Assembly: GCA_005878635.1 (NCBI GenBank)
Contig: VBLS01000110.1
Span: 506 to 64,505, forward strand
Direction of reading: 5' to 3'
Origin: Methanobacteriota archaeon
Lineage (GTDB): Archaea > Thermoplasmatota > Thermoplasmata > RBG-16-68-12
DNA: 64,000 nucleotides
Below, one piece after another: positions 1-36,836 of the stretch. The notes beneath the pieces are model-generated. The model was not told the origin of the DNA. It saw only the letters and a program-made list of their open reading frames with translations, and did not search any database. A program made the position numbers and the translations under genes. Position 1 is the first letter of the stretch, and every line of letters begins with the position of its first letter.

Positions 1-168
1 GAGATCGGGATCTGCGGCGAGCACGGCGGGGATCCGTCGAGCATCGAGTTGTGCCACCTCCTCGGCCTCAACTACGTATCGTGTTCGCCCTTCCGGGTAC
101 CGGTCGCCCGCCTCGCGGCGGCCCATGCAAAGCTTCGAGAACAGGTCGGCGAATTCGGGGACCGCTGA
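1..168 (+). CDS. 3' end of pyruvate, phosphate dikinase / PEP-utilizing enzyme (partial, N-terminus outside window)
   Basis: Frame-1 translation [45 protein letters not shown] matches the conserved PPDK C-terminal TIM-barrel tail (CGE.GGDP ... [19 protein letters not shown]). The stop is TGA at 166-168. Confidence 0.7.
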
Positions 169-180
169 CCTGGTGGAACG

Positions 181-960
181 TTGGCGGGCTTCGCGGATTC
201 GCCGTACTTTCTCGGCGTCCTGTTGGTCTCCGCGTTCACGATGCCCGTCATCTTCACGGTGTGGATCCGGAACACGGCCCGGTATGGGAGAGAACCGTGG
301 CGAAAGGTGATCCGGGCCTTCTTGTGGGGCGCCGTGTTCAGCGTGATCGTCGCGGTCATCTTCAGCCTAATTTTGGCCGCGACCCTCGGTCAAGTCGGGC
401 CGCTGAACACGTTTCTCATTCGACGTTTCCACGATCCGGATGTCGTATATCTGATCATCGGGGCCCTGATTGTTGCGCCGATCGTCGAGGAGGCGGCGAA
501 GGGCCTGGGGGTCCGCGAGGGGAGGCCGGAGATTCAAGGGTTGCTCGATGGGCTCGTCTACGGGGCCGCCGCGGGGTTGGGTTTCTCGGCGACGGAGAAT
601 CTGATCTACGGAGTCAACGCCCTCCTGTCTCCCGACGGCGGGGCCACGGCCTCCCTGGCGGCGATTGCGATTCGGTCCTTTTCCTCGTCGTTCCTCCACG
701 CGAGCTCGAGCGCGACCTTCGGCTACGGACTCGCGAAGGCATGGCTCACGCGTCGCACCTGGGCCTTCGTCCCGTACTATCTGCTCGCGGTGATCATGCA
801 CTCGACCTTCAACCTCCTGACGACGATCGGAGTGTTGTACGCGACCCCGTACGGGGAGACGGTGGGCTTCGTGGCCGCCGTCGCCTTCGCGCTCGTCGCC
901 ATCACGATCGTGCGGCTCAAACTCGCCGCGCATCCGCGAACGGTGGCCGGTAATCGATGA
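181..960 (+). CDS. PrsW-family intramembrane metalloprotease-like membrane protein
   Basis: Multi-TM protein with the PrsW signature motifs EEAAKGLG, FxxTEN, a REPW segment and conserved His residues. The only possible start is TTG at 181, four codons after the upstream stop. The stop overlaps the next gene's ATG as ATGA. Confidence 0.55.
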   Translation: MAGFADSPYFLGVLLVSAFTMPVIFTVWIRNTARYGREPWRKVIRAFLWGAVFSVIVAVIFSLILAATLGQVGPLNTFLIRRFHDPDVVYLIIGALIVAPIVEEAAKGLGVREGRPEIQGLLDGLVYGAAAGLGFSATENLIYGVNALLSPDGGATASLAAIAIRSFSSSFLHASSSATFGYGLAKAWLTRRTWAFVPYYLLAVIMHSTFNLLTTIGVLYATPYGETVGFVAAVAFALVAITIVRLKLAAHPRTVAGNR

Positions 961-1622
961 ATCCGGAAGTCGCGGTGGGCGATCGAGTCATCCGAGTCCC
1001 GAAGATCCTCTGCGTCGCCCGGAACTACGCGGACCACGCAAAAGAGATGGGGACCCCGGTCCCGAAGGAGCCGATCTTCTTCCTCAAGCCGACGACCGCC
1101 CTTTTGCCTGGAGGCGGGACGATTCTCCTCCCGGCGGAATCGAAACGAGTCGAAGTCGAGACCGAACTCGCGGTGATCCTGAAGGCCGGCGGTCGAGATG
1201 TGTCGGCCGCGAAGGCAGTGGATCTCATCGGCGGCTACGCCGTGTTCTTCGACATCACAGCGCGCGATCTCCAATCGAAGGCGCGGGAAGAGGGCGGACC
1301 ATGGACAGCCGCCAAGGGCTTCGACACCTTCGCACCGATTTCGAAGGGCGTCGTCGCGCATCGCGGAATCGATCCGCACGGCCTGTCGATTCGCCTCCGG
1401 GTGAACGGCGTTGTTCGGCAGGATTCGAACACGAGTCAGATGGTCTTCCGAATCCCCCAGCTGATCGAAGCGAGTTCGAGGATCATGACCCTCGAAGAGG
1501 GGGACGTCCTTGCGACGGGTACGCCTGCGGGTGTGTGGCCGATCGTCTCCGGCGACGTCCTCGATGCGGAGATTTCCCGGGTCGGAACCCTGCGCTGCAA
1601 CGTCGCTTCGCGAAACCGTTAA
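957..1622 (+). CDS. Fumarylacetoacetate hydrolase (FAH) family protein (2-keto-4-pentenoate hydratase/HpaG-like)
   Basis: 221 aa with FAH-fold motifs: ARNYADHAKEMG, FFLKP, ETELAVIL, and a GDVLATGTPAGV metal-binding tail. Confidence 0.8.
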   Translation: MNPEVAVGDRVIRVPKILCVARNYADHAKEMGTPVPKEPIFFLKPTTALLPGGGTILLPAESKRVEVETELAVILKAGGRDVSAAKAVDLIGGYAVFFDITARDLQSKAREEGGPWTAAKGFDTFAPISKGVVAHRGIDPHGLSIRLRVNGVVRQDSNTSQMVFRIPQLIEASSRIMTLEEGDVLATGTPAGVWPIVSGDVLDAEISRVGTLRCNVASRNR

Positions 1623-1650
1623 CTATCCCGGACCGCGTGCATGGCAGAGC

Positions 1651-2121
1651 ATGCGTTTTCGCTTTGAGATGGACGGAGACGTCTATTCAAAACACAAGGA
1701 TTCTTTCAAGCGCCTCCTGGCGAAGCACGGCCTTCGGTGGCGAGGCAGTCTGGACCGTCCCTTCTGGGCGAGTGCGACGGAACGGGTCACCGGCCTCTTC
1801 GATCGAGATGCGGAAAAGGACCTCCTGAAGTCCGCCACTCTGACTTGGGAGAGCGCCGGAAAGTCGCGGCTGCTCGAGGACCTGAAAGCCTGGGCCTGGG
1901 AGGTCGGCGCGAACGCCGTGGAGGACCGATCCCCGTCGGCCGAGGAGGTGACGGACGAGGTCGAGCAAGCTCTCCGCTACTGGGACTTCGTGTGGAAGCC
2001 CAACGAGGACCTCCTCAAGGCTCAGGGTCGCCCCCAGGCGTGGATCGATGCCGACGTCAAGCAATGGAAGCAACGGCGACAGGAACGGCGCCGCGAACTC
2101 ATCGGTCAAGCGACCGATTAG
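1651..2121 (+). CDS. Hypothetical Trp-rich cytoplasmic protein
   Basis: 156-aa ORF from an ATG immediately after the FAH gene. It shows coding-like amino-acid composition and has no recognisable motif. Confidence 0.35.
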   Translation: MRFRFEMDGDVYSKHKDSFKRLLAKHGLRWRGSLDRPFWASATERVTGLFDRDAEKDLLKSATLTWESAGKSRLLEDLKAWAWEVGANAVEDRSPSAEEVTDEVEQALRYWDFVWKPNEDLLKAQGRPQAWIDADVKQWKQRRQERRRELIGQATD

Positions 2122-2412
2122 GACAGTCCGATCGAGTGGACTTCAAGCGAATCATAGCAGTCGAAACAGAATCCTTGGCGTCGATCGTCGGGCAGAAGGA
2201 CGATTCGGGTGTGGCATTTCCGGCAGCGGGCTTCGCGGTCGCCTCCATCGGAAATCCGCCGTAGATCCGGACGAAGCTTCCATGAAATCGTACCCGCCCC
2301 CGAGCCACTCCCGGCGCCGCCACGGAGCCGATGCACTCTATAAGAACGTTGTGCGAAGCGGAACCGATGGCGGTCGGCGACGGTTTAATGCGCAAACGAT
2401 TGTTCCTCTTCC

Positions 2413-3027
2413 GTGCTCTCCGGTTTCGTCACGTTCGAAGGGATTGACGGGTCCGGCAAGACCACGGTGAGCCGGCTCGTGAAGGAGCGCCTTCGGTCCC
2501 AGGGCCACTCCGTCTTCCTGACGAGCGAGCCGACGCGCGGTTGGCTGGGAGAGACCGTTCGCCGGGGGATCGAGAAGGGCGTCAGTCCTCTCACGGAGAC
2601 CTTCCTGTTCCTCGCGGACCGCGCCGCCCACATCCAAGAGATTCGTTCCCACCTCGAGGCCGGGGAGATCGTCCTCTGCGACCGCTATGCGGATTCCACC
2701 TATGCCTACCAGGGGGCCCACTTGGTCGGAGTCCTGCGCGATCCCATCCGCTTCCTCCAGCGGGCGAGTGAGGGATGGATTCTCCCTCCCGATCTGACGA
2801 TCCTGCTTCGGGTCTCGCCGGAAGTCGGATTCGAACGGATCAAGGATCGACCCCACAAGATTCCGTTCGAGGACGTCGCGTTCCTCCGTCGGGTCGCGGC
2901 GAATTACGATCACCTCGCGAAGGCGCGACGGTTCTTCGTCTTGGACGCCGCCCGGCCGGCCGAGATCGTCAGCGACGAGGCCGTCGCGACGATTGAACGC
3001 CGCCTTGGCTCGAGGAGCCCGTCCTGA
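2413..3027 (+). CDS. tmk: Thymidylate kinase
   Basis: GTG start. P-loop FEGIDGSGKTT, LTSEPTRG and DRY motifs, and the LID region typical of dTMP kinase. Confidence 0.85.
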   Translation: MLSGFVTFEGIDGSGKTTVSRLVKERLRSQGHSVFLTSEPTRGWLGETVRRGIEKGVSPLTETFLFLADRAAHIQEIRSHLEAGEIVLCDRYADSTYAYQGAHLVGVLRDPIRFLQRASEGWILPPDLTILLRVSPEVGFERIKDRPHKIPFEDVAFLRRVAANYDHLAKARRFFVLDAARPAEIVSDEAVATIERRLGSRSPS

Positions 3028-3325
3028 TCGCGGACCGTCCCGCGAGGGATGCTTTGCGAAGGAGAAACGCACGGGCGAAGACATTCGCGATTTCCATGTT
3101 GCCTCGATGCAGTTCGAGGAGAAACGCTTTGCCGAACAGGACTTGAGTCGAGTCCTGTTTCTTCCGATTCGCCACGGGCGCGGTACGATGGGCCTATGGG
3201 GACCATGAAACGGCCTCCCAAGAATATCATCGGCGATTCTCAATTTCTCCAGATGGCAGGCCTCGGTCCTGGACAAAGCTATTTATGCGGTCGCCCGGTT
3301 ATCGCGACGCGCATGGGATGCACGC

Positions 3326-4816
3326 ATGGAATCCGCGGCTCGCCATAGGCCTTCTTCTCACCATGGCGATGGGTTCGTCGGCGTGATTTACGGGGACATC
3401 GGGACGACCGCGTTCCGTTGCTCGGTCGCGGAGGCTGTGGAGCGCAACGAGTTCATCCAAGTCCAACATGAGACCTGCGGTATCGTCCTCGGCCGCGTCG
3501 ACGAAGTTCAGCGAAAGACGGACCTCTCCCTAGATCGGGCACAAGCCCTCGGAGACGGAGACGCCGTTGACGTGGAGGAACGGGTCTCGGCGCAAATCAG
3601 CGTGATCGGATATCGCGACGACCGCGGCCTCCTGCAAGTTCCGAGGACGCCGTTTCGCGCGGGGGAACCCGTGCACCGCGCGGAGACGGCCACGATTCAA
3701 GACGTCATCGGGCTGACGGAGGACAAGAAGCACGGAGCCTACGTCGGCCTTCTCGCGGGTCATGAAGTGCCGGTCTACCTGGACATCAATGCGATGGTCC
3801 AGAAACACGTGTCGATCCTGGCGAAGACCGGCGGCGGAAAATCCTACATCGCGGGCGTCATGATCGAGGAACTGATGAAGCATCACGTGACCTGCGTGAT
3901 CCTCGATCCCCACGGCGAATACGCCTCCCTCCGAGAGAAGGGGAAGGCCGTCCATGGCGCGGCGCGCTTTCGGGTCGAGCCGCATGCGTACGCCGAGATC
4001 ATCCAGGTCTTTTCCCCGGACACCAAGGTGAACCCGGGGACCCGGCCGTTGAAGTTCACGTTGAGCAACCTCGATGCGCGGGACATCCTTTCCCTCACCG
4101 GCTCGGCCCGAGTCCGAACGCATCTCACGGCGTTGCGCAAGGCCCTCGACCTGTTGCGGCAGGCCGCGAAGGATTACACAATCCAAGATATCGTCCGCGT
4201 GCTCGAGCGGGAGGAGGACCCGCAGAATGCCTCCTTGATCGACGAGCTCGAATACCTGAGCGAGGTGGAGATCTTCGCGAAAGAAGGGACGCGGATCGAC
4301 GAGCTGGTGATCAAGGGAAAGACGACCATCATCAATCTGAAGGGCGTGCCCCCAGACATTCAGGAACTCGTCGTGAACCGCCTTGCGACGGCGATGTTCG
4401 AGTTGCGAAAAGTCGGTCGAATCCCACCGATGATGCTCGTCGTCGAAGAGGCCCATAACTTCTGCCCCCAAGTCGGCCAGGTCGCATCGTCAAAGGTGTT
4501 TCGAACGCTGGCTTCGGAAGGCCGCAAGTTTGGCCTGGGACTCGTCATCATCACACAGCGCGCTGCGAAGGTGGACAAGAACGTGCTCAGCCAGTGCAAC
4601 ACGCAAGTGATCCTGAAGGTCACGAATCCGAACGACCTGAAGGCGATCATCGCGAGTGTGGAAGGCCTCACCGCATCGCTGGCGGAGGAGATTTCCCGCC
4701 TCCCGATCGGCGTGGCAATCATGACCGGAGGGGGGCTCCAGATGCCCCTGATGGTCGAAGTCCGTCCCCGAGAAACGCGACACGGCGGAGAAAGCATCAA
4801 GGTCATCGACGATTGA
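3326..4816 (+). CDS. HerA/FtsK-like ATPase (DUF87 AAA-like domain with N-terminal HAS barrel)
   Basis: N-terminal HAS-barrel-like segment, Walker A AKTGGGKSY and Walker B hhhhDPHGE. The length is about 490 aa. No nurA, mre11 or rad50 gene lies nearby. The start codon is uncertain, with a possible in-frame GTG about 50 nt downstream. Confidence 0.75.
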   Translation: MESAARHRPSSHHGDGFVGVIYGDIGTTAFRCSVAEAVERNEFIQVQHETCGIVLGRVDEVQRKTDLSLDRAQALGDGDAVDVEERVSAQISVIGYRDDRGLLQVPRTPFRAGEPVHRAETATIQDVIGLTEDKKHGAYVGLLAGHEVPVYLDINAMVQKHVSILAKTGGGKSYIAGVMIEELMKHHVTCVILDPHGEYASLREKGKAVHGAARFRVEPHAYAEIIQVFSPDTKVNPGTRPLKFTLSNLDARDILSLTGSARVRTHLTALRKALDLLRQAAKDYTIQDIVRVLEREEDPQNASLIDELEYLSEVEIFAKEGTRIDELVIKGKTTIINLKGVPPDIQELVVNRLATAMFELRKVGRIPPMMLVVEEAHNFCPQVGQVASSKVFRTLASEGRKFGLGLVIITQRAAKVDKNVLSQCNTQVILKVTNPNDLKAIIASVEGLTASLAEEISRLPIGVAIMTGGGLQMPLMVEVRPRETRHGGESIKVIDD

Positions 4817-5120
4817 AAAACTCTTTCCGGAATTTCTCGCGTCCGGCTCATCGCGCACGGCCACTCCTGGAATCTCGCCCGAGGCTCGGTGTGTGCCTAG
4901 TGAATACATAGGACCCATAGTGAGTCGATTGAAAACGTGTTTCTCAAAAGAGATAGCGTCGTCGCCTCCATTAGTTGGCGAAATCAAATGCTCTGTTTGT
5001 ACGCAAGGAGACAATGGCGGTCAAAGAAGTGCCTGGGGGGGCGGTCAGTAACTCGAGGATTGTCGAGCGACCTTGACACTGGACGTCCAATTCAACGCAA
5101 ATCCCATCGAGGCACCTAGG

Positions 5121-6419
5121 ATGGTCGCGGCTCGTGACATTCCGGTCACTGCTGGTATCCACAACGAAGCCGGGAGCGAGACGGCCTCGAAGGCTCCCAT
5201 TCATTCGAATCGCGCTCCTCGCATTGCCCTCTACTCTCAGGGCATGATGGGCTTCGGCCACATCCGTCGCAATGCGTCGATCGCCCAAGCACTCCGCCGC
5301 TCCGCTCTCCAGCCCGCGATCGTCATGATTGCGGAAGCCTGGCAAGCGGGCGCGCTCCTCATGCCCGAGGGAATCGACTGCGTCACCCTTCCCGCCATCC
5401 GAAAGGAGGCGAACGGCGAATACAATCCCCGCTTTCTGCTGGACGTCTCGGACGCGGAACTCATCGCCCTCCGGACCCGGGTGATCCGGAGTGCCATGGA
5501 GGTCTTTGAGCCCGATGTGTTAATTGTGGACTACTTGCCCCTTGGAGTGGCCGGCGAATTGACTTCGACCCTCGAATACTTGCGGAGTCGCGCGAACACC
5601 CACTGCGTCCTCGGAGTTCGAGATGTCCTCTATGACCCGGAGACTGTGCGGCACTCCTGGGCGAATCCGACGAACACGGAGGCGATCCGAAAATACTACG
5701 ACGCGGTCTGGATCTATGGCGATCCGACCGTCTTCGACCCGGTTCGAGAATACGAGCTCAACGGTCCGATTGCCGCGAAGGCTCGGCATGTCGGATACCT
5801 CGACCAGCGCCCGCGGCTCGAGTTTGCGAGAGCCGAAGCGGAACCGTTTGTCGCGAATCTCCCGCAGGGCCGGATTGTCCTCTGCCTCGTCGGAGGTGGC
5901 CATGACGGGGGTGCACTCGGCGAAGCATTTCTCGGAGCGAAGTTGCCACCCGATGCGACCGGGGTCTTGGTGGCTGGTCCGTTAATGCCGTGGGAGGACC
6001 GGGAGCGGATTCGCCAGAACGCGAAAGGACGCTCCCATTTCCAAATGTTCGACTTCGTGCACGACCCGACTCCCCTGATCGAACGTGCGGACCGGATCAT
6101 CGCAATGGGCGGCTACAACACGGTTTGCGAAGCCCTTTCTTTCGAGAAGCACGCCCTCATCGTCCCCCGCGTGAGCCCGGAACCGGAGCAGTGGATCCGC
6201 GCCCAACGCCTCCGCGATCTCGGTTTGGTTGACGTGTTACATCCCGGCGCGCTGACCCCGGAGGCGTTGACGGAATGGCTCGCGAGCGATCTGGGACCCC
6301 CTCCAGCGAGTCGCAGTCGGATCGATTTCCAAGGGTTAACCCGCATACCGGCGATGGTCGCGGAGCTACTGAACGCCCCCTTTACCCACACGCCGGGAGA
6401 CATGCCTCTGCCCTTATGA
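5121..6419 (+). CDS. GT-B fold glycosyltransferase (GT28/GT1 MurG/MGT-like C-terminal donor-binding domain), paralog A
   Basis: The N-terminal Gly-rich motif MMGFGHIRR resembles the MurG/UGT GGTGGH loop. The C-terminal motif ADRIIAMGGYNTVCEALSFEKHALIVPR matches the hGGxx[TS]xxEaL...P.hhhP donor-binding signature of Glyco_tran_28_C/UDPGT enzymes. The start could instead be at 5073. The stop overlaps the next ATG (ATGA at 6416-6419). Confidence 0.7.
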   Translation: MVAARDIPVTAGIHNEAGSETASKAPIHSNRAPRIALYSQGMMGFGHIRRNASIAQALRRSALQPAIVMIAEAWQAGALLMPEGIDCVTLPAIRKEANGEYNPRFLLDVSDAELIALRTRVIRSAMEVFEPDVLIVDYLPLGVAGELTSTLEYLRSRANTHCVLGVRDVLYDPETVRHSWANPTNTEAIRKYYDAVWIYGDPTVFDPVREYELNGPIAAKARHVGYLDQRPRLEFARAEAEPFVANLPQGRIVLCLVGGGHDGGALGEAFLGAKLPPDATGVLVAGPLMPWEDRERIRQNAKGRSHFQMFDFVHDPTPLIERADRIIAMGGYNTVCEALSFEKHALIVPRVSPEPEQWIRAQRLRDLGLVDVLHPGALTPEALTEWLASDLGPPPASRSRIDFQGLTRIPAMVAELLNAPFTHTPGDMPLPL

Positions 6420-7690
6420 CCGCATCCATGAGCAACGGGATTCGCACGTTCCTGATGTACGCCCAGGATGGCAAAGGGATGGGGCACATCACCCGGACCA
6501 CGACGATTGCCAAGCATCTCCTCGCGGCCCATCCGAATTCCGTCGCCTACATCACGACGGAGTCCCCGGTCATCGGGGAGTTCACCCTCCCTGAACGGTG
6601 CGACTATCTGAAGTTGCCCAGGCGAATGAGCCCAACCACGGTCGTTGAGACGGAGGCGGAACATGAGGCGGCCATCGACCACTTCCGGATCCACGTCCGA
6701 TCCCGAATCCTGCGAGAGGCTGCGCTCGCGTTGGCCCCCGACCTTGTTCTGGTCGATCATGAACCCCTCGGTCGGAAAGGGGAGTTTCGGGAGGGCCTGT
6801 ACGCGTTGAAGGAGGAGTCCCCCACGACGAAGTTCGTGTTCGGTCTCCGCGACATTATGGACGGTGTCACTCGGATTCGGGCTCAGTGGCGAGACCTGGG
6901 GGTCTACGACGCCCTTGAGAACGTGTACGACGGCATCGCCGTATACGGTTCGCGGGACCTATACGACGTGGCGGAAGCCTATGCCATCCCGCCGTCCGTG
7001 CGTTCCAAGTTGCACTATTGCGGGTACGTCGTCCGGGATGGCGAGTGCACGGATGCAAACGAGATTCGCGAGCGGTACCAGGTCCCTTCGAAAGGACCCC
7101 TGGTCGTCGCGACGGTCGGCGGGGGAATCGACGGGTATCCCGTGCTGGAGGCCGCCTGCGCAGCCGTCCAACACTTGCAGTCGGTCCATCCCGATCTCAA
7201 CGCCGTCTTCGTGACCGGACCGCTCATGCCGCTCGACCAGCAGGAGAAACTTCGCGCGCGCGCCACCACGACGTGCCGCGTCCTCACCCGGGCCGACAAT
7301 TTTCAGCTCATGGCCGCGGCCGACGCCATCGTCAGCATGGGCGGATACAACAGCGTGTGCGAAGCTCTGTCCGTCGGTCGACCTCTGGTGATCGTGCCTC
7401 GGTCCACGCACAAAATCGAGCAGCAGATCCGAGCCGAGACCCTCGCCGCGCGCGGCCTCGCTCGATGGATCCACCCCAAAGACCTGAACGGCGGGGAGAG
7501 CCTCGCGGAGGCTCTGGAATGGGCGTTGACGCGTGATCCGCGGGACCACGCCCGGCTCGTTCGAAAGATCATCCCGTCCTTCGACGGAGCTTCAAATCTG
7601 ACCGCGTACGTTTCTCGCTGGCTGAGCGACGACGGGATGGGCGGCCGAGCCAACGGCCGAGAGCAGCTGTCAACGGAGGGATGGGCATGA
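6416..7690 (+). CDS. GT-B fold glycosyltransferase (GT28/GT1-like), paralog B
   Basis: Paralog of the upstream gene, with GKGMGHITR at the N-terminus and ADAIVSMGGYNSVCEALSVGRPLVIVPR at the C-terminus. It has ATGA overlaps with both neighbouring genes. Confidence 0.7.
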   Translation: MTASMSNGIRTFLMYAQDGKGMGHITRTTTIAKHLLAAHPNSVAYITTESPVIGEFTLPERCDYLKLPRRMSPTTVVETEAEHEAAIDHFRIHVRSRILREAALALAPDLVLVDHEPLGRKGEFREGLYALKEESPTTKFVFGLRDIMDGVTRIRAQWRDLGVYDALENVYDGIAVYGSRDLYDVAEAYAIPPSVRSKLHYCGYVVRDGECTDANEIRERYQVPSKGPLVVATVGGGIDGYPVLEAACAAVQHLQSVHPDLNAVFVTGPLMPLDQQEKLRARATTTCRVLTRADNFQLMAAADAIVSMGGYNSVCEALSVGRPLVIVPRSTHKIEQQIRAETLAARGLARWIHPKDLNGGESLAEALEWALTRDPRDHARLVRKIIPSFDGASNLTAYVSRWLSDDGMGGRANGREQLSTEGWA

Positions 7691-8664
7691 ATCCGGCGGA
7701 GACCCTCCAACCGGACGAGACCCACGCCATATTGAGCGGAGCTCTGCGCGAATTGGAGGGAGTTGGCGCCCGGCTCGAGGGTTGGACCGCGGACAATACC
7801 TTCACGCCGTTCGGGAAACGGCGTGTGGTCCGCTATGAGCTGGAGGCCCGGTTGGCTGGAGGTCCCGATGTGCGTCGATACCGTTGGGTCGGGAAATTCT
7901 ACGATCGGGATGACGATGCCCGTCGAGTCGCCACCGTCCTTCGCGAGCTGGGGTCGAACGGTCAGGTCGAATCCTGTCTCGCGGTTCCGAGCGTCCTCGC
8001 GTACCACGCGCCACGCCGTCTCTTGTTGTTGACGTACGAGTCCGGCGAGTCGATGACGACGGCGATGGCGCAGGACACGCAGAAGATCTTTGCCGCGATC
8101 GGTCGCACGCTGGCGACCTTGCACGCCCTTCCCATCGCCCCAACTCGGACGATCTTTCCGAACGCCGTCCTCGAAGATGTCCGGCCAAGAGTCCGGGATC
8201 TTTGCGAACGGTTCCCCAGCGAAGCCGGTTCCCTGGAGAGCGCGATCGATGCCCTGGAGCGCGATGCCCCGCCATTTCCCTCGGCACCGTCCTTCGTCCA
8301 CGGCGACTTCGGCCCTGCGAACCTCCTCTGGCGGGCGGGCCACGTCGTCGTGTTGGATTTCGACAAATGCGCGCTGGGTGACCCGGCGTGCGACCTGGGC
8401 AACCTATTCGCACAGCTGTTCCGAACTACGATCAAAAGGCCGGAAATCCTGCGGGACTTCCCCTCCGCGCGCGCGACAGTCCTCCAGTCCTACATCCGAT
8501 GGTCTCCGATCGATTCGGATCTGGACTCTCGGATCGCATGGTATGAGCGGGTTACTCTGTTGCGGAAGATTCATGGGTTGCTGTTCAGCAAGAGCCGAGA
8601 CCCACATCCGGAGGCGGTTCGACAACGTCAGGCCGAAGCCGTCCAGTTGTTGAGGATGGAATAG
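7687..8664 (+). CDS. APH/CotS/choline-kinase-fold phosphotransferase, paralog 1
   Basis: Catalytic loop FVHGDFGPANLL (HGDxxxxN) and metal-binding VVLDFD, typical of PF01636-type small-molecule kinases. The ATG at 7687 overlaps the upstream stop as ATGA. An alternative ATG lies at 7681. Confidence 0.7.
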   Translation: MNPAETLQPDETHAILSGALRELEGVGARLEGWTADNTFTPFGKRRVVRYELEARLAGGPDVRRYRWVGKFYDRDDDARRVATVLRELGSNGQVESCLAVPSVLAYHAPRRLLLLTYESGESMTTAMAQDTQKIFAAIGRTLATLHALPIAPTRTIFPNAVLEDVRPRVRDLCERFPSEAGSLESAIDALERDAPPFPSAPSFVHGDFGPANLLWRAGHVVVLDFDKCALGDPACDLGNLFAQLFRTTIKRPEILRDFPSARATVLQSYIRWSPIDSDLDSRIAWYERVTLLRKIHGLLFSKSRDPHPEAVRQRQAEAVQLLRME

Positions 8665-8666
8665 CC

Positions 8667-10148
8667 ATGCGTGATCAACCGGAACAGCGGAATCGCCCGC
8701 CTGCGACGGGCCGTCCCCCGGATTCGGAGGGTGCGTCCCATCCGGGGAGTGACGAACGGTTCGACGCCGGGAGGCCGGATGGGTTCCCTTTCGATCCCGA
8801 CTTTCCGCAGCTCCCGATCGCGGCGAACCCCGACCTGATGCTCGAGGTCTTCCGAGCCGAGCTGAAGCCGGTCGCGCACCAGAAGTACGAAATCGAAGCG
8901 TGCAAGCCATTCCGCTTCCGGTGCCGGCAGTCGAAGTCTCGTCATGTGTTACAATACACCCTCCGCGTCGCGGATCCCTTGACGGGTCGCCGATGGGATC
9001 AGCCGGTGACCGGCGTACTGTATGCCGACGAAAGCAAGGCGGAGCGGCGGTGGCAGGAGATGCATGCCAAGGATCCACGCGGCGGGATTCCTTCCGAGTG
9101 GCTCACGTTCGAACCGGTCAGCATCGTTCCTGGCCTCCGAATGCTCGTCCAGATCTTTCCCTACGATCGGAGACTTCGGACCCTCGGGCCGGTGATGGGA
9201 GCGGCTGGGCGCGACGTTGATCCCCTACTCCTGACCCGCCTCGGTCCCGGCGAATGGGAAGTGGAGGATCGGACAATCGAAACCGCGAGGTACCGAACCG
9301 AGCGCGGGGCCGTTCTCCGCTACACCATACGAGCGCGTGAAATCCAGTCGGCTCGGCGCGAGACCCTGACCTGCTACTTGAAAGTCTATCGAAACGAGCG
9401 CGGCGCGGACACTTGGCGATTCCTGCAATTGATGTCCGCCAAGGTCGAAGGGAGCCCACAACCCTACGACGTGATTCGGCCGATTGCCTATCTAATGGAG
9501 CACCGCACGCTCGTGGCCGAAGAGGCACCTGGCACTTCGCTGACCCAACTGCTGCTTCGAGCGGGAGATCCGGCCGAAGCGGTACGTCCCGTCGCCCGGG
9601 CTCTAGCGGCTTTCCACCAAGACGATGTCCCGGCCACGCGGCAAGAATCGCTCGCCGACGCGTTGAAAACCATTCGAAAGGCGTCAACTCTCGTTGAGTG
9701 GATATGTCCCGGAGCACGGGATGCGATCCAAGCGATCACGGCTGAAGTGAGGGCTGGCTTGCGAGAGGCGCCGCCAACGCCGATTCACGGAGACCTCAAG
9801 CCGGATCATCTCTTCGTGTCCGGCCCGCAGGTGGTCTTCATCGATCTCGACTCGGTCGCGTTCGGCGACCCCGTTCGAGACGTGGCATCCTTTTTCGCTC
9901 ACCTGGCGAGCAGGGCCGGGATGCGTTCGATGCCGGCGGGTCGGGCTCGTGCAGCGGCGGCCGCCTTCGTCGAAGAATACTTCCGCCATGCGCCGAGTAC
10001 GTGGCGCGAGCGTCTGCCCCTGCATACCGCAGGCGCGTTTCTTGAGGTGGCGGCTGGCATCTTCCGGGCTCAAGAGCCGGGCTGGCGGGAGACGGCCGCT
10101 TGGATCATCGAGGCGGCACAACGCGCGTGCCGGGGGGTCCCTGATTGA
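8667..10148 (+). CDS. APH/ePK-fold phosphotransferase, paralog 2, with an N-terminal extension of about 170 aa
   Basis: Catalytic loop IHGDLKPDHLF, which resembles the eukaryotic protein kinase HRDLKPEN loop, and VFIDLDSVAFGD (DFG-like). The N-terminal extension is Pro/Arg-rich and has no recognisable motif. Confidence 0.65.
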   Translation: MRDQPEQRNRPPATGRPPDSEGASHPGSDERFDAGRPDGFPFDPDFPQLPIAANPDLMLEVFRAELKPVAHQKYEIEACKPFRFRCRQSKSRHVLQYTLRVADPLTGRRWDQPVTGVLYADESKAERRWQEMHAKDPRGGIPSEWLTFEPVSIVPGLRMLVQIFPYDRRLRTLGPVMGAAGRDVDPLLLTRLGPGEWEVEDRTIETARYRTERGAVLRYTIRAREIQSARRETLTCYLKVYRNERGADTWRFLQLMSAKVEGSPQPYDVIRPIAYLMEHRTLVAEEAPGTSLTQLLLRAGDPAEAVRPVARALAAFHQDDVPATRQESLADALKTIRKASTLVEWICPGARDAIQAITAEVRAGLREAPPTPIHGDLKPDHLFVSGPQVVFIDLDSVAFGDPVRDVASFFAHLASRAGMRSMPAGRARAAAAAFVEEYFRHAPSTWRERLPLHTAGAFLEVAAGIFRAQEPGWRETAAWIIEAAQRACRGVPD

Positions 10149-12541
10149 CCGGATCAGACGAGGGACCAGAGGACCAGGAAGGCCGGTCGCCGAGGAGGGG
10201 TAGTAATGGACATGAGGAGAATCGGCCCGCGGCCGAGCGAAGGTACTCGGAACTTCTCGACCAGATTCGAGTCACGGACGAGCGGTATGCGGAGCTCCTG
10301 GACGAGCTGAGGTCCCTCGGCGAGCGGCGGGCGTTACCTGAAGAAGGCGAGACTCGGTCGTCCAGCGTGTCCCCAATGTCGATTTCCGAATCAGGTCGCG
10401 CTCGTCTCCGGGACATCCCCATGACCCGTCGTCGCTGGATCGCCAGGCTGGTCGCGGTGATCCTCACCGGCCTCTCTACGGCTGCCTGGCTACTGGGTTA
10501 TCTCGGGTCTGCCTACAACATCCAGGTAGCGTTGTTCGCCCTCCCCCGGGAATTCGGTCGCTCATTCCTCTCCGATTTCCAGCTCTTGCTCTTGCAGATC
10601 ACCGCTCCCATTTTCGCTTGGGGAATCTGGGGCGTCATTACCGCTCGAGAATGGCGGCGATGGAGTCGGGCGCACAAGGTCGGCTCCCCGAGCCCCCCCG
10701 GGTCCGAAATTGCTCCCTCGCAGGTCCCTGGGACCAGCTCATCCCCGGTTCGGGGCGATTCAGAACCGGTTCGAAAGCAAACCCTCCGGCGGCTCTTGTC
10801 CTATTTGAGGCCCCACTGGCCGTATGCGGCCGGGGTTATGGCGGGACTCGTCATCGCCGCCCTGATGGACCTGACGCAAGTGTGGATCCTCGCGTTTCTC
10901 TTCATCGGGCAAGTTGTTCGGCTGGGGCACGTGGAGCTCCTTCCAAATGTCCTCCTCCTGCTCGGCACGACCTTTGCCGCCAAAGAGGTCGCCTCGTTTG
11001 TCAAGGACTATCTGTCGGAGATCCTGGCTCAGAAGACCGTGCATCGACTCCGATCCGATCTATACGAGAACATCGAGCGAATGCCCATGAGCTTCCTCGA
11101 TATGTCGCGGTCCGGTGAACTCGTCTCCCGGGTCGTCAGCGACACGAACGAAGTGGAAAGGGTCCTGACCGACAACGTCGCGGATTTCCTCACGAATGCG
11201 GTCATGGTCGCGGGCGCCCTCGGCCTACTGTTCTTCGTGAACGCGAGACTCGCTTTATTGGTCACGCCCCCCGCCCTCGTCATGGTCATCGTCGTGAACC
11301 GATTCAAAAAGTCCATCAAACAGACCTCGAGAAAAATCCGCGAAGCAGTCGCCGAACTCACCGCGAAGGCCTTCGAGGTCGTCTCCGGCCTCCGTATCGT
11401 GAAGAGTTTCAGGATGGAGCACCACGAGGCGAACGCGTTTCGCGATCGGTCCTGGGCGATCGCTCGGGCCAAGGTCCGCCTGGCTCGGCTTTCCGGAGCC
11501 TATTCCTCGACCGTGGATTTCCTCACCTTGTGCTCCCTCGCGGTGTTCGTCTGGTTCTCGGCGCCGGCGGTGATCAGCGGCGACCTGACAGTCGCAGTAG
11601 CGGTCGCCTTCCTCGGGTACATGGACAAGGTGTTCAAGCCCCTCGTCGTCCTGAGCAAGGTCAATTTCACGGTCCAAAAGGCCGTGGCGGCGGCCGATCG
11701 CATCTTCGAATTCATGGATGCGAAGGTGGAAGTCCTGGACGCCCCCGACAGTCTCTTCCCGCAAACGATCGAGGGACGCATCCAGTTCGACCGGGTGACT
11801 TTCGGGTATCGGCCGAACCGATACGTGCTGGAAGACTTCTCGTTGACGATCGAGCCCGGGGAGACGGTTGCGGTCGTCGGATCGAGTGGTGTGGGCAAAT
11901 CCACGATCGTCAACCTGCTCCTTCGGTTCTACGAGCCGATCGCGGGCGGGATTTCGATCGACGGATATCCCCTCGATCGGTTGAGCCTGAGTTGCCTACG
12001 GAACAAAATCGGCCTTGTCATGCAGGAGCCGGTCCTCTTCTCGGGATCGATTCGGGAGAACATCATGTACGGCGACGTTGAAGCCTCGGAGGAGAACGTC
12101 GTACGAGCAGCACAGTCAGCGAACGCCCACGATTTCATCGTGGGCCTGCCGAAGGGATATGACACGCAGATTGGCGAGCGCGGGGTCACCCTGTCCGTCG
12201 GCCAGAGGCAACGGATCGCGATTGCTCGCGCCCTCCTGAAGAACCCGAGCATCCTCATCCTTGATGAGGCGACTTCGAACATCGACTCCGAATCGGAATC
12301 GCTCATCCAAGACGCGTTGCGCAAGCTTGCACAGCGCAGGACGATGATTATCATCGGGCACCGGCTTTCGTCGATCATGGACGCGGACCGAATCGTGGTG
12401 CTCGAAGACGGAGGCATCGCCGAGGTCGGGACCCACGAAGACCTCCTTGGGAGAGGAGGGGTCTACGCGCGGCTGTACGAAGCCCAGATCGATCGGGTAG
12501 CTCCGGAGGAGGCGCCCCACAACCAACTCGACGCCGTGTGA
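10145..12541 (+). CDS. ABC exporter, fused permease-ATPase (MsbA/ABCB-like), with an N-terminal extension carrying two extra TM helices
   Basis: C-terminal NBD with Walker A GSSGVGKST, signature LSVGQRQR, Walker B ILILDEAT and an H-loop. The canonical 6-TM ABC_membrane core begins near LRRLLSYLRPHWPY. About 200 aa precede it: an acidic coiled-coil-like segment, two predicted TM helices and a Ser/Pro linker. The start is uncertain. TTG at 10145 overlaps the upstream stop, and there are internal ATGs. Confidence 0.85.
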   Translation: MTGSDEGPEDQEGRSPRRGSNGHEENRPAAERRYSELLDQIRVTDERYAELLDELRSLGERRALPEEGETRSSSVSPMSISESGRARLRDIPMTRRRWIARLVAVILTGLSTAAWLLGYLGSAYNIQVALFALPREFGRSFLSDFQLLLLQITAPIFAWGIWGVITAREWRRWSRAHKVGSPSPPGSEIAPSQVPGTSSSPVRGDSEPVRKQTLRRLLSYLRPHWPYAAGVMAGLVIAALMDLTQVWILAFLFIGQVVRLGHVELLPNVLLLLGTTFAAKEVASFVKDYLSEILAQKTVHRLRSDLYENIERMPMSFLDMSRSGELVSRVVSDTNEVERVLTDNVADFLTNAVMVAGALGLLFFVNARLALLVTPPALVMVIVVNRFKKSIKQTSRKIREAVAELTAKAFEVVSGLRIVKSFRMEHHEANAFRDRSWAIARAKVRLARLSGAYSSTVDFLTLCSLAVFVWFSAPAVISGDLTVAVAVAFLGYMDKVFKPLVVLSKVNFTVQKAVAAADRIFEFMDAKVEVLDAPDSLFPQTIEGRIQFDRVTFGYRPNRYVLEDFSLTIEPGETVAVVGSSGVGKSTIVNLLLRFYEPIAGGISIDGYPLDRLSLSCLRNKIGLVMQEPVLFSGSIRENIMYGDVEASEENVVRAAQSANAHDFIVGLPKGYDTQIGERGVTLSVGQRQRIAIARALLKNPSILILDEATSNIDSESESLIQDALRKLAQRRTMIIIGHRLSSIMDADRIVVLEDGGIAEVGTHEDLLGRGGVYARLYEAQIDRVAPEEAPHNQLDAV

Positions 12542-12739
12542 CACCCACCAATCCGTTGTCATGCCACGCCGGAGGCTCACGCCTCGAAGACAGACCGAAT
12601 AGTCACATGGGCCAAATTCGACAAGCGTCAAAACACCTGTGTGGTACAACTGGCCCAATATGTGTTACACTCGGGGCCAGATTGGCCGCAGTTGGGGGCG
12701 AGGCTTTGATATGACCGATCTCCTACGACCCCGGAGCGC

Positions 12740-14392
12740 ATGAAGGGGATGGCCGCGACGAACCAGGGACGCCGCATGGGACCGTTCCATTTTCGCGGGA
12801 AGACGAAGGCTTTGATTCGGACGACCCGGAAGTTTCGAGGGGTCGGCATCCCCACCGACCACGTGTGGAAGGCCCCCGTGCAACATCGACATCCCGCGGA
12901 GCTTGGGCCGTGGACCGTCCGCGTGAAGTCCGATTCCGACAGGGAGTTGTTGGAGGAGCTGAGGAAGTCGTTGAATTGGATGAAGGCCCTCGAACGCCCG
13001 AAAACGGATCGGATTCCGAGGCAGGTGTCGGCCGAAGAGGGCGCCAAGGAACCGCGACGGATCCCAAGCAAGCGGCGCGAGGCGGCCATCCTCCGTCGGA
13101 GGGCCGTCGCCGTCCTCGCCCTCGCACTCGTCATCGCCATGGCCGCGGGTTGGGCTTTGTTCCAGAAAGGAGCGGTCGTAAAGAGCCCTTTCGATTTCTC
13201 CCAGCCGCGCTGGAAAGACGAGTCCGCTACGCACTTCACGTTTGCGGCCGCGGGAGACTTTGGAGGACCGGACAACAACGATTCCGTCGGCGTCCTAGGA
13301 CGTGCTCGAACGGCTGGCATGTCGTTCTTCCTCGCCCTCGGCGATCTGGGGTACACGACGGATGCGTCGGGTTGGTGCACGCAAATGAAACGGGTCCTGC
13401 CGGAGATCGTCATCGTCGCCGGGGATGACGGGAGCAACGTGGGCGGCAACATGTCGGGGTACGTTGGGAGCTGTCCGTACCCGCTCTCCTCCCCGATGGT
13501 CTTGGGCAACGGGACTCCCGGCTACGGGTACGAGTATTACTTCGACTACCCTCGGGACAGGCCCCTCGCGCGATTCATCCTGCTCTCGGCCGGGCTCAAG
13601 GGTGTCAATTACAACTACGGCAAGAACTCACCGCATACGGAGTGGGTCGAGGACGCCGTCGCGAATGCCCGAGATGCGGGCATCCCTTGGGTCATCGCGG
13701 GGGTCCACAAGGAGTGTATCACCGTGGCCAACGATGGCCACTGTCCTATGGGCCAGTACCTCTTCGACGAACTTCTGGAAGCCCACGTGGACTTGATATT
13801 GGTTGGTCACGACCATGTGTACGAGCGGAGCAAGCAGCTCAGGGTCTCGTCGAGCTGCGAGTCCGTCAACTCGACGAACCGGTTTGATCCTTCCTGCGTC
13901 GCAGCGAATGGAACCCGAGGCGCCTACGCGAAAGGCAAAGGCACTGTCGTCGTTGTGCAAGGCGTCGGAGGGCGAAGCTTCGACAACGTGTCGATTGACG
14001 GAGGTGACCGGGAGCTGGGTTACTTCGACGCGGTCATGGGCGCCAATGCGAATACCCAAGGGCGGCTGTCCGGCTTCGGGTCCGTGTTCTACGAAGTGGA
14101 GGCTGATTCGATCGCAGCGAAAACCGATTTCTGTCCGCCCGAGTCGACTGCGACCGAAGGGCGTTGCACGTCGAATCCCGGCTCGGTGTTTGCGGACCAC
14201 TTTGCGATCTATGCTTCCGCCGGTTTACAGTCTTCGTCGGATGTGCGGGCGTCGTACCTCGAGCGTGGTGTCTCTCCGGTATCGGGCGCCTCGTCCGTCC
14301 TTCCAGAGCCGGAACAAAATGGATTCGAACAACGGGCCATCGTCCTGCCGAGAGGTCACATCCTGTATCTTCACGTCGCGAGGGGACCTTAG
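12740..14392 (+). CDS. Membrane-anchored metallophosphoesterase (purple acid phosphatase / calcineurin-like), predicted extracellular catalytic domain
   Basis: A basic cytoplasmic N-terminus is followed by a single TM segment (AVAVLALALVIAMAAGWALF) and then metallophosphatase motifs GDFGG, GDLGY and LVGHDHVYER. The ectodomain carries many N-x-S/T sequons. A TATA-like TTTGATATG box lies about 30 nt upstream. Confidence 0.7.
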   Translation: MKGMAATNQGRRMGPFHFRGKTKALIRTTRKFRGVGIPTDHVWKAPVQHRHPAELGPWTVRVKSDSDRELLEELRKSLNWMKALERPKTDRIPRQVSAEEGAKEPRRIPSKRREAAILRRRAVAVLALALVIAMAAGWALFQKGAVVKSPFDFSQPRWKDESATHFTFAAAGDFGGPDNNDSVGVLGRARTAGMSFFLALGDLGYTTDASGWCTQMKRVLPEIVIVAGDDGSNVGGNMSGYVGSCPYPLSSPMVLGNGTPGYGYEYYFDYPRDRPLARFILLSAGLKGVNYNYGKNSPHTEWVEDAVANARDAGIPWVIAGVHKECITVANDGHCPMGQYLFDELLEAHVDLILVGHDHVYERSKQLRVSSSCESVNSTNRFDPSCVAANGTRGAYAKGKGTVVVVQGVGGRSFDNVSIDGGDRELGYFDAVMGANANTQGRLSGFGSVFYEVEADSIAAKTDFCPPESTATEGRCTSNPGSVFADHFAIYASAGLQSSSDVRASYLERGVSPVSGASSVLPEPEQNGFEQRAIVLPRGHILYLHVARGP

Positions 14393-24057: not shown

Positions 24058-24064
24058 CGCTCAC

Positions 24065-25963
<1,899 letters not shown>

Positions 25964-35477: not shown

Positions 35478-35609
35478 TCGCAAAACGACGCATGGCAACG
35501 GCGTTTGTCAACGCGGCGGACGTTCGTCGGACAACTTTTAAATAGCGTCCGCCGAATACGCGGCCATCTTGCGGGATGGGATGACCTCGCAGGTTCTGCA
35601 GGTGGCGGA

Positions 35610-36704: not shown

Positions 36705-36836
36705 GCGCTCCGACCTCTCCATTTCACGGGAGGACGGAGCGGATCCCGCGAACCCGGAAACCTTTATTAACGCTCCCCCTTTACATCTCATTCGCGGTTG
36801 CTTCATTTGCTTCCTCGGGCAGCCGGAGGCCGAACC

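Follow-up and report, generated by a model that had tools for sequence, protein, structure and literature searches.

What is made and exported by a run of six same-strand genes, encoding glycosyltransferases (GTs), kinases, an ABC exporter and a phosphoesterase-like protein, on the chromosome of a soil archaeon? The genes lie on contig VBLS01000110.1 of a Methanobacteriota archaeon (assembly GCA_005878635.1), of which we analysed a stretch of 64,000 nucleotides (the window); they occupy window positions 5073-14392 on the + strand in the order GT-A, GT-B, K1, K2, ABC exporter and purple acid phosphatase (PAP)-like gene. An initial annotation had taken them for an undescribed archaeal modification-and-export system, and had offered three purposes for it: the inactivation, export and reactivation of a toxic metabolite, resistance to xenobiotics, or the synthesis of a phosphorylated glycolipid head group. 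In our assessment there is about an even chance that the locus is the minimal archaeal form of a widespread, horizontally transferred cassette that makes, decorates and exports an anionic glycan or oligosaccharide. We found no description of the cassette, or of its combination of GTs, kinases and ABC exporter, in the open-access literature, and in this respect the initial annotation was right.

A cassette shared by soil bacteria and archaea

K2 is a marker gene for the entire cassette family. It has 635 detectable homologues, mostly 55-60% identical and from soil metagenomes, some with bacterial source labels, and an exhaustive HMMER scan yielded 208 cluster representatives at E ≤ 1e-30. A genome scan with K2, restricted to one genome per species, returned 70 loci, all of them in metagenome-assembled genomes (MAGs) and referred to here by number (L010 and so on). 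(Genes in these loci were called with a simple GC3-based caller together with tblastn, and antisense artefacts, namely families 5, 6, 9, 18 and 21, were set aside.) The GT/kinase/ABC core is present in about 60 soil MAG loci, mostly from Gemmatimonadales, and in at least ten bacterial groups. The hosts are soil Thermoplasmata, many Gemmatimonadales, Rokubacteria, Verrucomicrobia, Betaproteobacteria, Eisenbacteria, Chloroflexi, Nitrospirae, Acidobacteria, Rubrobacteraceae, other Actinomycetota and one Rhodospirillales; the nearest relatives in the scan are MAGs from Angelo soil that bear the label 'Methanobacteriota archaeon', and among related proteins the label is Thermoplasmata archaeon. The gene arrangement is strongly conserved: both a GT of the GT-A/GT-B family and an ABC gene were present at 34 of the 42 K2 loci that extend at least 6.5 kb upstream of K2. 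Moreover, every kinase and every GT makes up a conserved group of orthologues of its own, and the gene order is fixed across phyla, reading GT-A, GT-B, (K0), K1, ABC, K2, (K3...) in bacteria and GT-A, GT-B, K1, K2, (K3.., GalU-like), ABC, PAP-like in archaea. Because the arrangement of the window is found on six independent assemblies of this organism and recurs in about 60 further loci, it cannot be ascribed to chance. (An identical K1 is encoded on five soil-metagenome contigs of the Joint Genome Institute (JGI) and on contig VBLX01000127 of MAG GCA_005878585.1.)

The archaeal proteins remain close to those of Gemmatimonadales, Rokubacteria and Verrucomicrobia, the bacterial sources with which K2, GT-A and GT-B were compared: identities are 58-76% for GT-A (Gemmatimonadales, Rokubacteria), about 57-69% for GT-B (60-70% by another comparison with bacterial homologues), 42-58% for K1 and 50-61% for K2. 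In neighbour-joining trees, which were built without support values, archaeal K2 and GT-A nest, with identities of 55-76%, within a bacterial radiation dominated by Gemmatimonadales, and because of this nesting the cassette appears to have been acquired by the archaeon from soil bacteria rather than invented in archaea. The claim that the system is archaeal must thus be given up in favour of a widespread soil-bacterial cassette. Variants with extra kinases, a GalU-like gene and a UDP-glucose dehydrogenase occupy the same chromosomal site in other Thermoplasmata.

Three further observations concern individual loci. The Thermoplasmata MAG contig L015 has, directly upstream of a complete copy of the cassette (4545-12557), another that is partial (GT-A, K1, K2 and K3; positions 1-4548), and its two K2 copies fall in different archaeal sub-clades. 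L026 and L031, from bins labelled 'Betaproteobacteria', have a cassette order nearly identical to that of L025 and L048, from Gemmatimonadetes bins of the same soil study, and branch together with them, a likeness that reflects either very recent transfer or mis-binning of contigs. Finally, in seven bacterial cassettes (L025, L026, L027, L031, L032, L033 and L067) the kinases are closely followed downstream, on the other strand, by the gene for a BlaR1-type Peptidase_M56 protein with C-terminal HEAT repeats, which may be either a sensor or a coincidental neighbour.

Sister cassettes suggest an acidic glycan as the exported product

The content of the sister cassettes bears most directly on what the cassette makes. 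Archaeal variants add one to three further APH kinases, K1-K2 fusions and a GalU-like sugar-1-phosphate nucleotidyltransferase; L016 has a UDP-glucose 6-dehydrogenase gene within the cassette, and the number of kinases per cassette rises to six among the relatives. Variants from Rubrobacteraceae and other Actinomycetota (L053, L055, L056, L066, L069 and L072) combine one cassette-family GT, two GT4 enzymes of the exopolysaccharide (EPS) type and an ABC exporter with a histidine phosphatase; their K2 paralogues number one to four and their Sulfotransfer_3 genes three to six, and in L072 a further UDP-glucose dehydrogenase gene lies a few kb downstream of the cassette. These variants look like a pathway for a heavily sulfated bacterial glycan akin to a glycosaminoglycan (GAG), a product that to our knowledge would be unusual. 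A GT2 gene is inserted in variants from Nitrospirae, Rokubacteria and Betaproteobacteria, several Gemmatimonadales cassettes open with a DUF5916 protein, and the Rhodospirillales cassette closes with an Alginate_exp outer-membrane porin.

Searching plasmids by tblastn revealed distant relatives in cultured organisms. An uncharacterised operon of eight genes on Escherichia coli IncF plasmids (GT28-like, GT4, GT4, ABC, APH, APH, Alginate_exp porin and nucleotide-sugar dehydrogenase) occurs in 18 of 5,426 complete genomes, and the product of its first gene is 37% identical to GT-A. (One example, L091, is NZ_AP025748.1 130534-140712, and another is on NZ_CP012501.1 of strain 08-00022; the plasmids are large and come from bovine and food isolates.) A plasmid of 'Ca. 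Manganitrophus' encodes a GT, a GT4, a heparinase II/III-like protein, an APH kinase, a radical SAM/SPASM protein, a histidine phosphatase, a second GT4 and a second APH kinase, and megaplasmids of Rhizobium and Sinorhizobium have kinase-less versions beside a polysaccharide lyase and a sugar dehydrogenase. Because the sister cassettes thus bring together uronate-forming dehydrogenases, lyases, alginate-type porins, EPS-type GTs and enzymes for phosphate or sulfate decoration, they point to a putative exported acidic glycan or oligosaccharide whose phosphate and sulfate decorations would be interchangeable.

Two groups of known pathways share parts of this gene content. UDP-glucose dehydrogenase, Alginate_exp porins, the heparinase II/III-like protein, the histidine phosphatase and the many sulfotransferases recall acidic polysaccharide pathways (alginate with AlgE, teichuronic acid with TuaD, and the heparosan type) and eukaryotic GAG maturation (the xylose kinase Fam20B, the phosphatase PXYLP1 and sulfotransferases). 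The logic of the sister cassettes resembles that of a uronate glycan to which phosphate is added transiently and sulfate afterwards. (The likeness to GAG maturation is one of analogy.) Unlike these pathways, the window has none of the accessory genes in question, and there is no synthase of the Alg8/44 type, no Wzx/Wzy and no KpsMT.

Phosphoesterases also recur beside the kinases. A PAP-like gene is present at seven archaeal loci. Eight bacterial loci and a ninth contig encode a beta-propeller phytase that has a signal peptide (PF02333, E=2e-85); its gene lies between K2 and K3 in L046 and L065 (with spacers of 14-17 nt in L046). Two loci have an additional secreted Metallophos protein, a second type of Rubrobacteraceae cluster has a Phosphodiest protein of the NPP type, and four loci have His_Phos_1. 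That five unrelated families recur next to the kinases, as expected of non-orthologous replacement, argues for a phosphoesterase being functionally required by the cassette. Beta-propeller phytases prefer vicinal phosphates bridged by Ca2+, as would suit a ring or chain that is phosphorylated by several kinases. Synthesis of inositol phosphates, at which only the neighbouring phytases and the kinase count hint, was considered and rejected as a candidate function; neither an inositol-1-phosphate synthase nor a monophosphatase was found among the annotated neighbours, which make up part of the flanking genes.

Two glycosyltransferases and two kinases without membrane helices

GT-A (5121..6419, + strand) belongs to an uncharacterised family of the GT1/GT28 clan that carries only the JGI label 'predicted glycosyltransferase'. 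(Its longest open reading frame (ORF) starts from a TTG at 5073; gene callers picked the ATG at 5121.) GT-B (6416..7690, + strand), for which all 552 homologues are from environmental assemblies, is a full-length paralogue of GT-A (30% identity, E=2e-48). The nucleotide-sugar-binding domain Glyco_tran_28_C scores 28 bits in GT-A and 40 bits in GT-B (Pfam cut-off 22), GT-B also matches Glyco_trans_1_3 (31.5 bits), and GT-A retains the family-invariant GxGHxxR loop and the motifs MGGYN..E and PR..EQxIRA. The enzymes therefore share with GT28/MurG the GT-B fold with a C-terminal Glyco_tran_28_C domain. The description of the pair as MurG/MGT-type holds at the level of the clan; at the level of the family it fails, since the MurG and MGT models reach about 10% of their cut-offs. 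In particular, the proteins neither match the MurG equivalog over its full length nor have an N-terminal Glyco_transf_28 domain, and the macrolide GT models TIGR01426, NF000362 and NF033129 score 17-30 bits against cut-offs of 260-700. The AlphaFold2 (AF2) model of GT-B (mean predicted local distance difference test (pLDDT) score 87.6) has as its nearest folds GT1 enzymes for natural products and sterols, followed by MGD1 and MurG.

K1 (7681..8664, + strand; 327 aa) and K2 (8667..10148, + strand; 493 aa) have the APH fold of eukaryotic-like small-molecule kinases, K2 with an additional N-terminal region. Here too the proposed paralogy was borne out, the two being 29% identical across the C-lobe (E=2e-12). 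The APH domain (PF01636; Pfam cut-off 23) scores 95 bits in K1 and 58 bits in K2, and both proteins have the HxD loop and the metal-binding Asp: K1 reads HGDFGPAN in the catalytic loop and LDFD, and K2 reads HGDLKPDH and IDLD, its residues K239, H374-x-D376 and D393-x-D395 being invariant in 17 homologues. Judging from these motifs, both look like catalytically intact kinases of the small-molecule type. K1 has weak sequence matches in the PDB to hygromycin-B, macrolide and capreomycin kinases (E ≥ 2e-4); for K2, no sequence relative was found in the PDB with either a single query or a profile, and its AF2 model has a pLDDT of 82.6. The predicted folds of GT-B and K2 settle the clan of each protein but not its substrate. 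Hydropathy gave no hydrophobic helix in either GT or either kinase.

The kinases do not belong to a known sugar-kinase family such as maltokinase acting with GlgE, an identity that would have spoken against the initial annotation. They show no sequence relation to solved maltokinases (Mak/Pep2), only a generic likeness of fold (rank 12, 15% identity), and no TreS or GlgE gene was present in about 70 loci. We likewise rejected the class V lanthipeptide kinase LxmK (NF038156), which is the best NCBIfam match of both kinases and yet scores only 41 and 35.5 bits against a cut-off of 315; no LxmX/LxmY or precursor genes were seen among the annotated neighbours, which bear no signature of ribosomally synthesized and post-translationally modified peptides. 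The best precedent for kinases that act on a glycan is the inner core of lipopolysaccharide (LPS), in which the sugars are phosphorylated by the protein-kinase-like-fold enzymes WaaP/WaaY and KdkA before transport by MsbA. The cassette kinases, in contrast, belong to PF01636 (APH) and not to PF06293 (Kdo/WaaP), faint matches to which are confined to fused relatives; moreover, the cassette has no lipid A or heptose context and is present in archaea and Gram-positive bacteria.

In several Thermoplasmata (L010, L016, L020 and L083, as well as proteins P0008-P0010 and similar ones), K1 and K2 are fused into one protein of about 820 aa, which suggests that the two kinases act as one unit.

A type I ABC exporter, apparently replaced in archaea

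The ABC gene (10145..12541, + strand) encodes a half-transporter of the type I exporter class with fused transmembrane and nucleotide-binding domains (TMD-NBD), in which ABC_membrane scores 144 bits and ABC_tran 115 bits (Pfam). Its best NCBIfam models (TAP, MsbA, MsbA_rel, CphA-associated, HepA and glucan exporter) all remain below their cut-offs; for MsbA (TIGR02203) the score is 471.5 bits against 602, with TAP, MsbA_rel and the CphA-associated model scoring alike, so that the protein can be classified as a type I ABC exporter only. The TTG at 10145 is a genuine start codon, because the 230-aa N-terminal extension that follows it (10145-10837) is conserved as protein in L013 and L014, the latter having an ATG at the same site. 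This extension consists of a charged segment, which is probably coiled, and two extra hydrophobic helices. It is missing from the ABC proteins of the bacterial cassettes, to which the archaeal protein is only 34-39% identical, compared with 63-92% among the archaeal ones. This low identity, together with the different position of the gene, indicates that the exporter was apparently swapped for a non-orthologous one in archaea, the need for an exporter being kept.

Cytoplasmic GTs paired with a fused TMD-NBD type I exporter are also found in the cyclic beta-1,2-glucan (NdvA/ChvA), PglK and MsbA systems, and the glucan-exporter, MsbA and PglK models align with the cassette ABC over their full length, though below cut-off (for the glucan exporter, 350 bits against 733; for MsbA, 471 against 602). 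What distinguishes the archaeal cassette ABC from these exporters is its two-helix extension. We know of no APH-fold kinases in these systems.

(The candidate of an anti-phage defence or 'ternary conflict' system was tried and rejected: matches to TCAD9 are weak, and PADLOC reports a generic ABC-ATPase similarity only.)

The PAP-like protein has probably lost its catalytic role

The last gene (12740..14392, + strand) encodes a membrane-anchored, outward-facing PAP-like protein of 550 aa. Its match to Metallophos is marginal, at 19.8 bits against a cut-off of 21.5, and this is the one domain call of the initial annotation to fall just below threshold, those for the GTs, the kinases and the exporter all lying above it. 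A profile of its family, however, matches solved plant purple acid phosphatases at E~1e-11, including the 516-aa entry 6git, which was deposited as a purple acid phosphatase and which we take to be the wheat PAP phytase. Hydropathy predicts a single transmembrane helix at residues 116-134, and the N-terminal part has 31 K/R against 13 D/E, in keeping with the positive-inside rule, so that the catalytic domain is predicted to lie outside the cell. The ectodomain has eight Cys and six N-x-S/T sequons, compared with 2.3 ± 1.4 in shuffled sequences, and relatives of the protein are fused to PKD, Big or dockerin domains.

The predicted location of the proposed ecto-phosphoesterase therefore stands, whereas extracellular reactivation by it is doubtful. 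Of the five motifs of purple acid phosphatases (GDxG, GDxxY, GNH(D/E), VxxH and GHxH), the window protein has four, in the forms GDFG, GDLGY, VHK and GHDHVYER. It shares these motifs, and the extracellular location, with plant and fungal PAPs, PAP phytases among them, but differs from them in its N-terminal membrane anchor, which replaces a signal peptide, and in the third motif, which reads AG--DDGS (GNHD reduced to G--D): an in-frame deletion has removed the metal-binding Asn and the catalytic His, as it has in L013 and L014. Among the seven cluster-linked archaeal orthologues all ligands are kept only in L037 and L085; the proteins of L015, L083 and L010 show other losses (Y to N, N to S, and H to G/R/Q/T). 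The dN/dS of the PAP-like gene is 0.34-0.37, below 1 and thus indicative of purifying selection, compared with 0.12-0.23 for the other five genes. From these features we infer a drift from phosphatase to a surface protein that binds phosphate esters, and the window protein probably acts by binding and is no longer an active ecto-phosphatase.

Chained genes with a mosaic history

As the initial annotation had it, five co-directional genes are chained and a phosphoesterase-like gene follows about 200 nt downstream. The GT-A/GT-B junction is an ATGA overlap, GT-B and K1 overlap by 10 nt, K1 and K2 are separated by 2 nt, and K2 and ABC share a TTGA overlap. Between ABC and the PAP-like gene lies a spacer of 198 nt (12542..12739, + strand), which contains an A/T-rich element, TTTGATAT, about 30-38 nt upstream of the PAP-like ATG; from this element, the PAP-like gene may have an archaeal promoter of its own.

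Compared with L013, dS is 1.3 for the flanking HerA gene and 1.17 for GT-A, and only 0.20-0.41 for the five genes from GT-B to the PAP-like gene; this block (6416-14392) gives dS of 0.2-0.4 against both L013 and L014, with HerA and GT-A at 1.2-1.3. Against L037 the pattern is reversed, the flanks being 96-97% identical at the protein level and GT-B through PAP only 50-72%. One breakpoint lies near the GT-A/GT-B junction and another past the PAP-like gene. The block has a history separate from that of its flanks and recombines as a unit, and that the PAP-like gene recombines with it is the best evidence here for this gene being part of the system, beyond mere synteny.

A proposed pathway and its alternatives

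We propose that the pathway would operate as follows. GT-A and GT-B, which form two orthologous groups and would depend on nucleoside diphosphate sugars, would build a short sugar chain or an alternating repeat in the cytoplasm. The sugars are probably glucose and/or glucuronate, because of the GalU-like gene in sister archaeal loci and the UDP-glucose 6-dehydrogenase of L016. K1 and K2 would each move a phosphate from ATP onto a particular hydroxyl of the glycan, and a dimer of the ABC half-transporter would carry the phosphorylated product over the membrane. Outside the cell, the secreted beta-propeller phytase and/or metallophosphoesterase of the bacteria could strip or recycle the phosphate; in the window archaeon, the PAP-like protein would more likely bind or tether the phosphoglycan at the surface of the presumably wall-less cell. 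In this account the gene content, its conservation and horizontal transfer, the fold assignments and the loss of the motif are established; what the acceptor and the sugars are, in which order the steps run and what the PAP-like protein does are our inferences.

Several points weigh against this proposal. No product has been observed. The window itself has no accessory EPS genes, the glycan assignment being carried over from relatives, some of which are distant (the E. coli and rhizobial GTs are 30-37% identical). The GT fold is nearest to GT1 enzymes that act on small natural products, and type I ABC exporters are associated with lipids, peptides and drugs more than with glycans, for which the export of cyclic glucan is the main precedent. 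The linkage of the PAP-like gene in archaea could partly reflect synteny within the lineage, and the divergent archaeal locus L016 has no PAP-like gene. Moreover, loss of the Asn and His is no proof that all activity of the PAP-like protein is gone.

The cassette might instead make a phosphorylated glycolipid or a lipid-linked glycan, the GTs acting at the inner face on a membrane lipid or a polyprenyl-phosphate carrier, the kinases phosphorylating the head group and an MsbA- or PglK-like ABC flipping the product into the glycocalyx. We regard this as unlikely. MsbA and PglK are among the best models of the exporter, lipid-acting enzymes are among the structural neighbours of the GT-B model, and the accessory GT4 and GT2 enzymes resemble those that act on lipid-linked intermediates. 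Nevertheless, GT-A and GT-B are 60-76% identical between archaea and bacteria, whose lipids and carriers differ chemically, no cassette has a priming phosphoglycosyltransferase, and the absence of hydrophobic helices from the GTs and kinases fits poorly with work on a lipid. Pairs of MacB and membrane fusion protein genes near six bacterial cassettes could be taken in favour of a lipid product, but MacB genes are abundant in these phyla and those in question lie on the opposite strand. The alginate-export porins of the Gram-negative relatives, moreover, imply a soluble polymer that crosses the outer membrane. Thus, an exported phosphorylated glycan fits best, and the membrane-lipid head group first suggested fits less well.

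Alternatively, the cassette could serve self-protection of the prodrug type, in which a small bioactive glycoside is phosphorylated inside the cell, exported, and freed of its mask by an external phosphatase, on the pattern of streptomycin-6-phosphate and StrK. The streptomycin system (APH(6)/StrA, StrK) unites genes for an APH-fold kinase, an exporter and an extracytoplasmic phosphatase, and here too kinases, an exporter and phosphatases with signal peptides are repeatedly found together, the phosphatase having been replaced non-orthologously. The nearest GT structures are GT1 enzymes of natural products, and a spread over phyla and domains is typical of cassettes for secondary metabolites or resistance. 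However, about 60 cassettes share no conserved scaffold genes (polyketide synthase, non-ribosomal peptide synthetase, cyclitol or aminosugar enzymes), and the accessory genes are of the polysaccharide type, with which inactivation, export and reactivation of a toxic metabolite fits poorly. The cassette differs further from the streptomycin type in its multiple kinases and GTs, and up to six kinases or six sulfotransferases per cassette would be excessive for masking. The cassette phosphatases are PAP-like proteins and beta-propeller phytases, whereas StrK is alkaline-phosphatase-like, and that of the window lacks catalytic residues and is probably inactive. We therefore consider such self-protection distinctly improbable.

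A xenobiotic resistance island of the aminoglycoside or macrolide type, in which the kinases and GTs would inactivate antibiotics and the ABC exporter would pump them out, is very improbable, because, for all the weak likeness of K1 to the kinases for hygromycin, macrolides, viomycin and capreomycin and of the GTs to Mgt and OleI/OleD, every resistance-family model stays far under its cut-off (APH(3') 27 against 205, OleI 23 against 700, Mgt 17 against 700), and because horizontal spread, its other support, is set against conserved orthologous groups in fixed order across phyla, sulfotransferases, UDP-sugar enzymes, lyases and porins in sister cassettes that suit resistance poorly, and an archaeal site without mobile-element genes.

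Taken together, the cassette joins an ABC-exporter glycan pathway with sugar kinases in the style of the LPS core, and its steps are distributed in space as in the export of streptomycin phosphate. It belongs to none of these systems, because the MurG, MGT, MsbA, maltokinase, LxmK and WaaP models fail either on cut-offs or on defining features.

If the anionic-glycan proposal is correct, APH-fold kinases that decorate a glycan in an ABC-exporter pathway would constitute a new type of cassette, one common to many dominant uncultured soil lineages. It would also mean that a multi-gene pathway for surface display or secretion moved from bacteria to soil archaea, where the exporter was replaced and the phosphatase eroded to a probable binding protein. 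It would further suggest a way in which microbes make extracellular carbohydrate rich in phosphate (or, in Actinobacteria, in sulfate), a matter of interest for phosphorus cycling in soil. The E. coli IncF plasmid operon, a culturable if more distant relative, makes this otherwise uncultivable system testable.

A more far-reaching idea, which we offer as a speculation with little probability behind it, is that the products form a new class of heavily O-phosphorylated extracellular glycans, or of cyclitol-like glycosides with vicinal phosphates (heavily O-sulfated and GAG-like in Actinobacteria). Released by abundant uncultured soil microbes (Gemmatimonadota, Rokubacteria, Verrucomicrobia, Rubrobacteraceae and soil Thermoplasmata) and recycled by enzymes of the phytase and PAP types, such compounds would be a source of recalcitrant organic phosphorus in soil, and the archaeal pseudo-phosphatase would be a surface receptor. 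In this connection, the origin of non-myo inositol phosphates in soil, whether biotic or abiotic, remains unclear (PMC5984642).

Chromosomal setting

The cassette is bordered by genes for HerA, DUF357, a kinase of the GHMP family (which we presume to be pantoate kinase) and Dfp. The remaining window holds archaeal housekeeping genes, namely those for cysteinyl-tRNA synthetase, two FtsZ proteins, Spt5, ribosomal proteins L1 and L10, and gyrase, the last placed at 21562-25963 through synteny with annotated relatives. Because both the bordering genes and the rest of the window are archaeal housekeeping genes, the cassette is integrated in the archaeal chromosome and is no artefact of binning. An Rfam scan of the window found two tRNAs only, neither of them near the cassette, and no structured RNA nearby.

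Elsewhere in the window, the two FtsZ paralogues are adjacent (35505-36704 and 36798-37943, 94 nt apart) and are followed downstream by an ORF of 83 aa and then by Spt5/NusG. Finally, positions 31434-34091 encode a protein of 885 aa that unites PKD domains with an SBP_bac_5 solute-binding domain and is probably a surface-displayed protein that binds oligopeptides or sugars.

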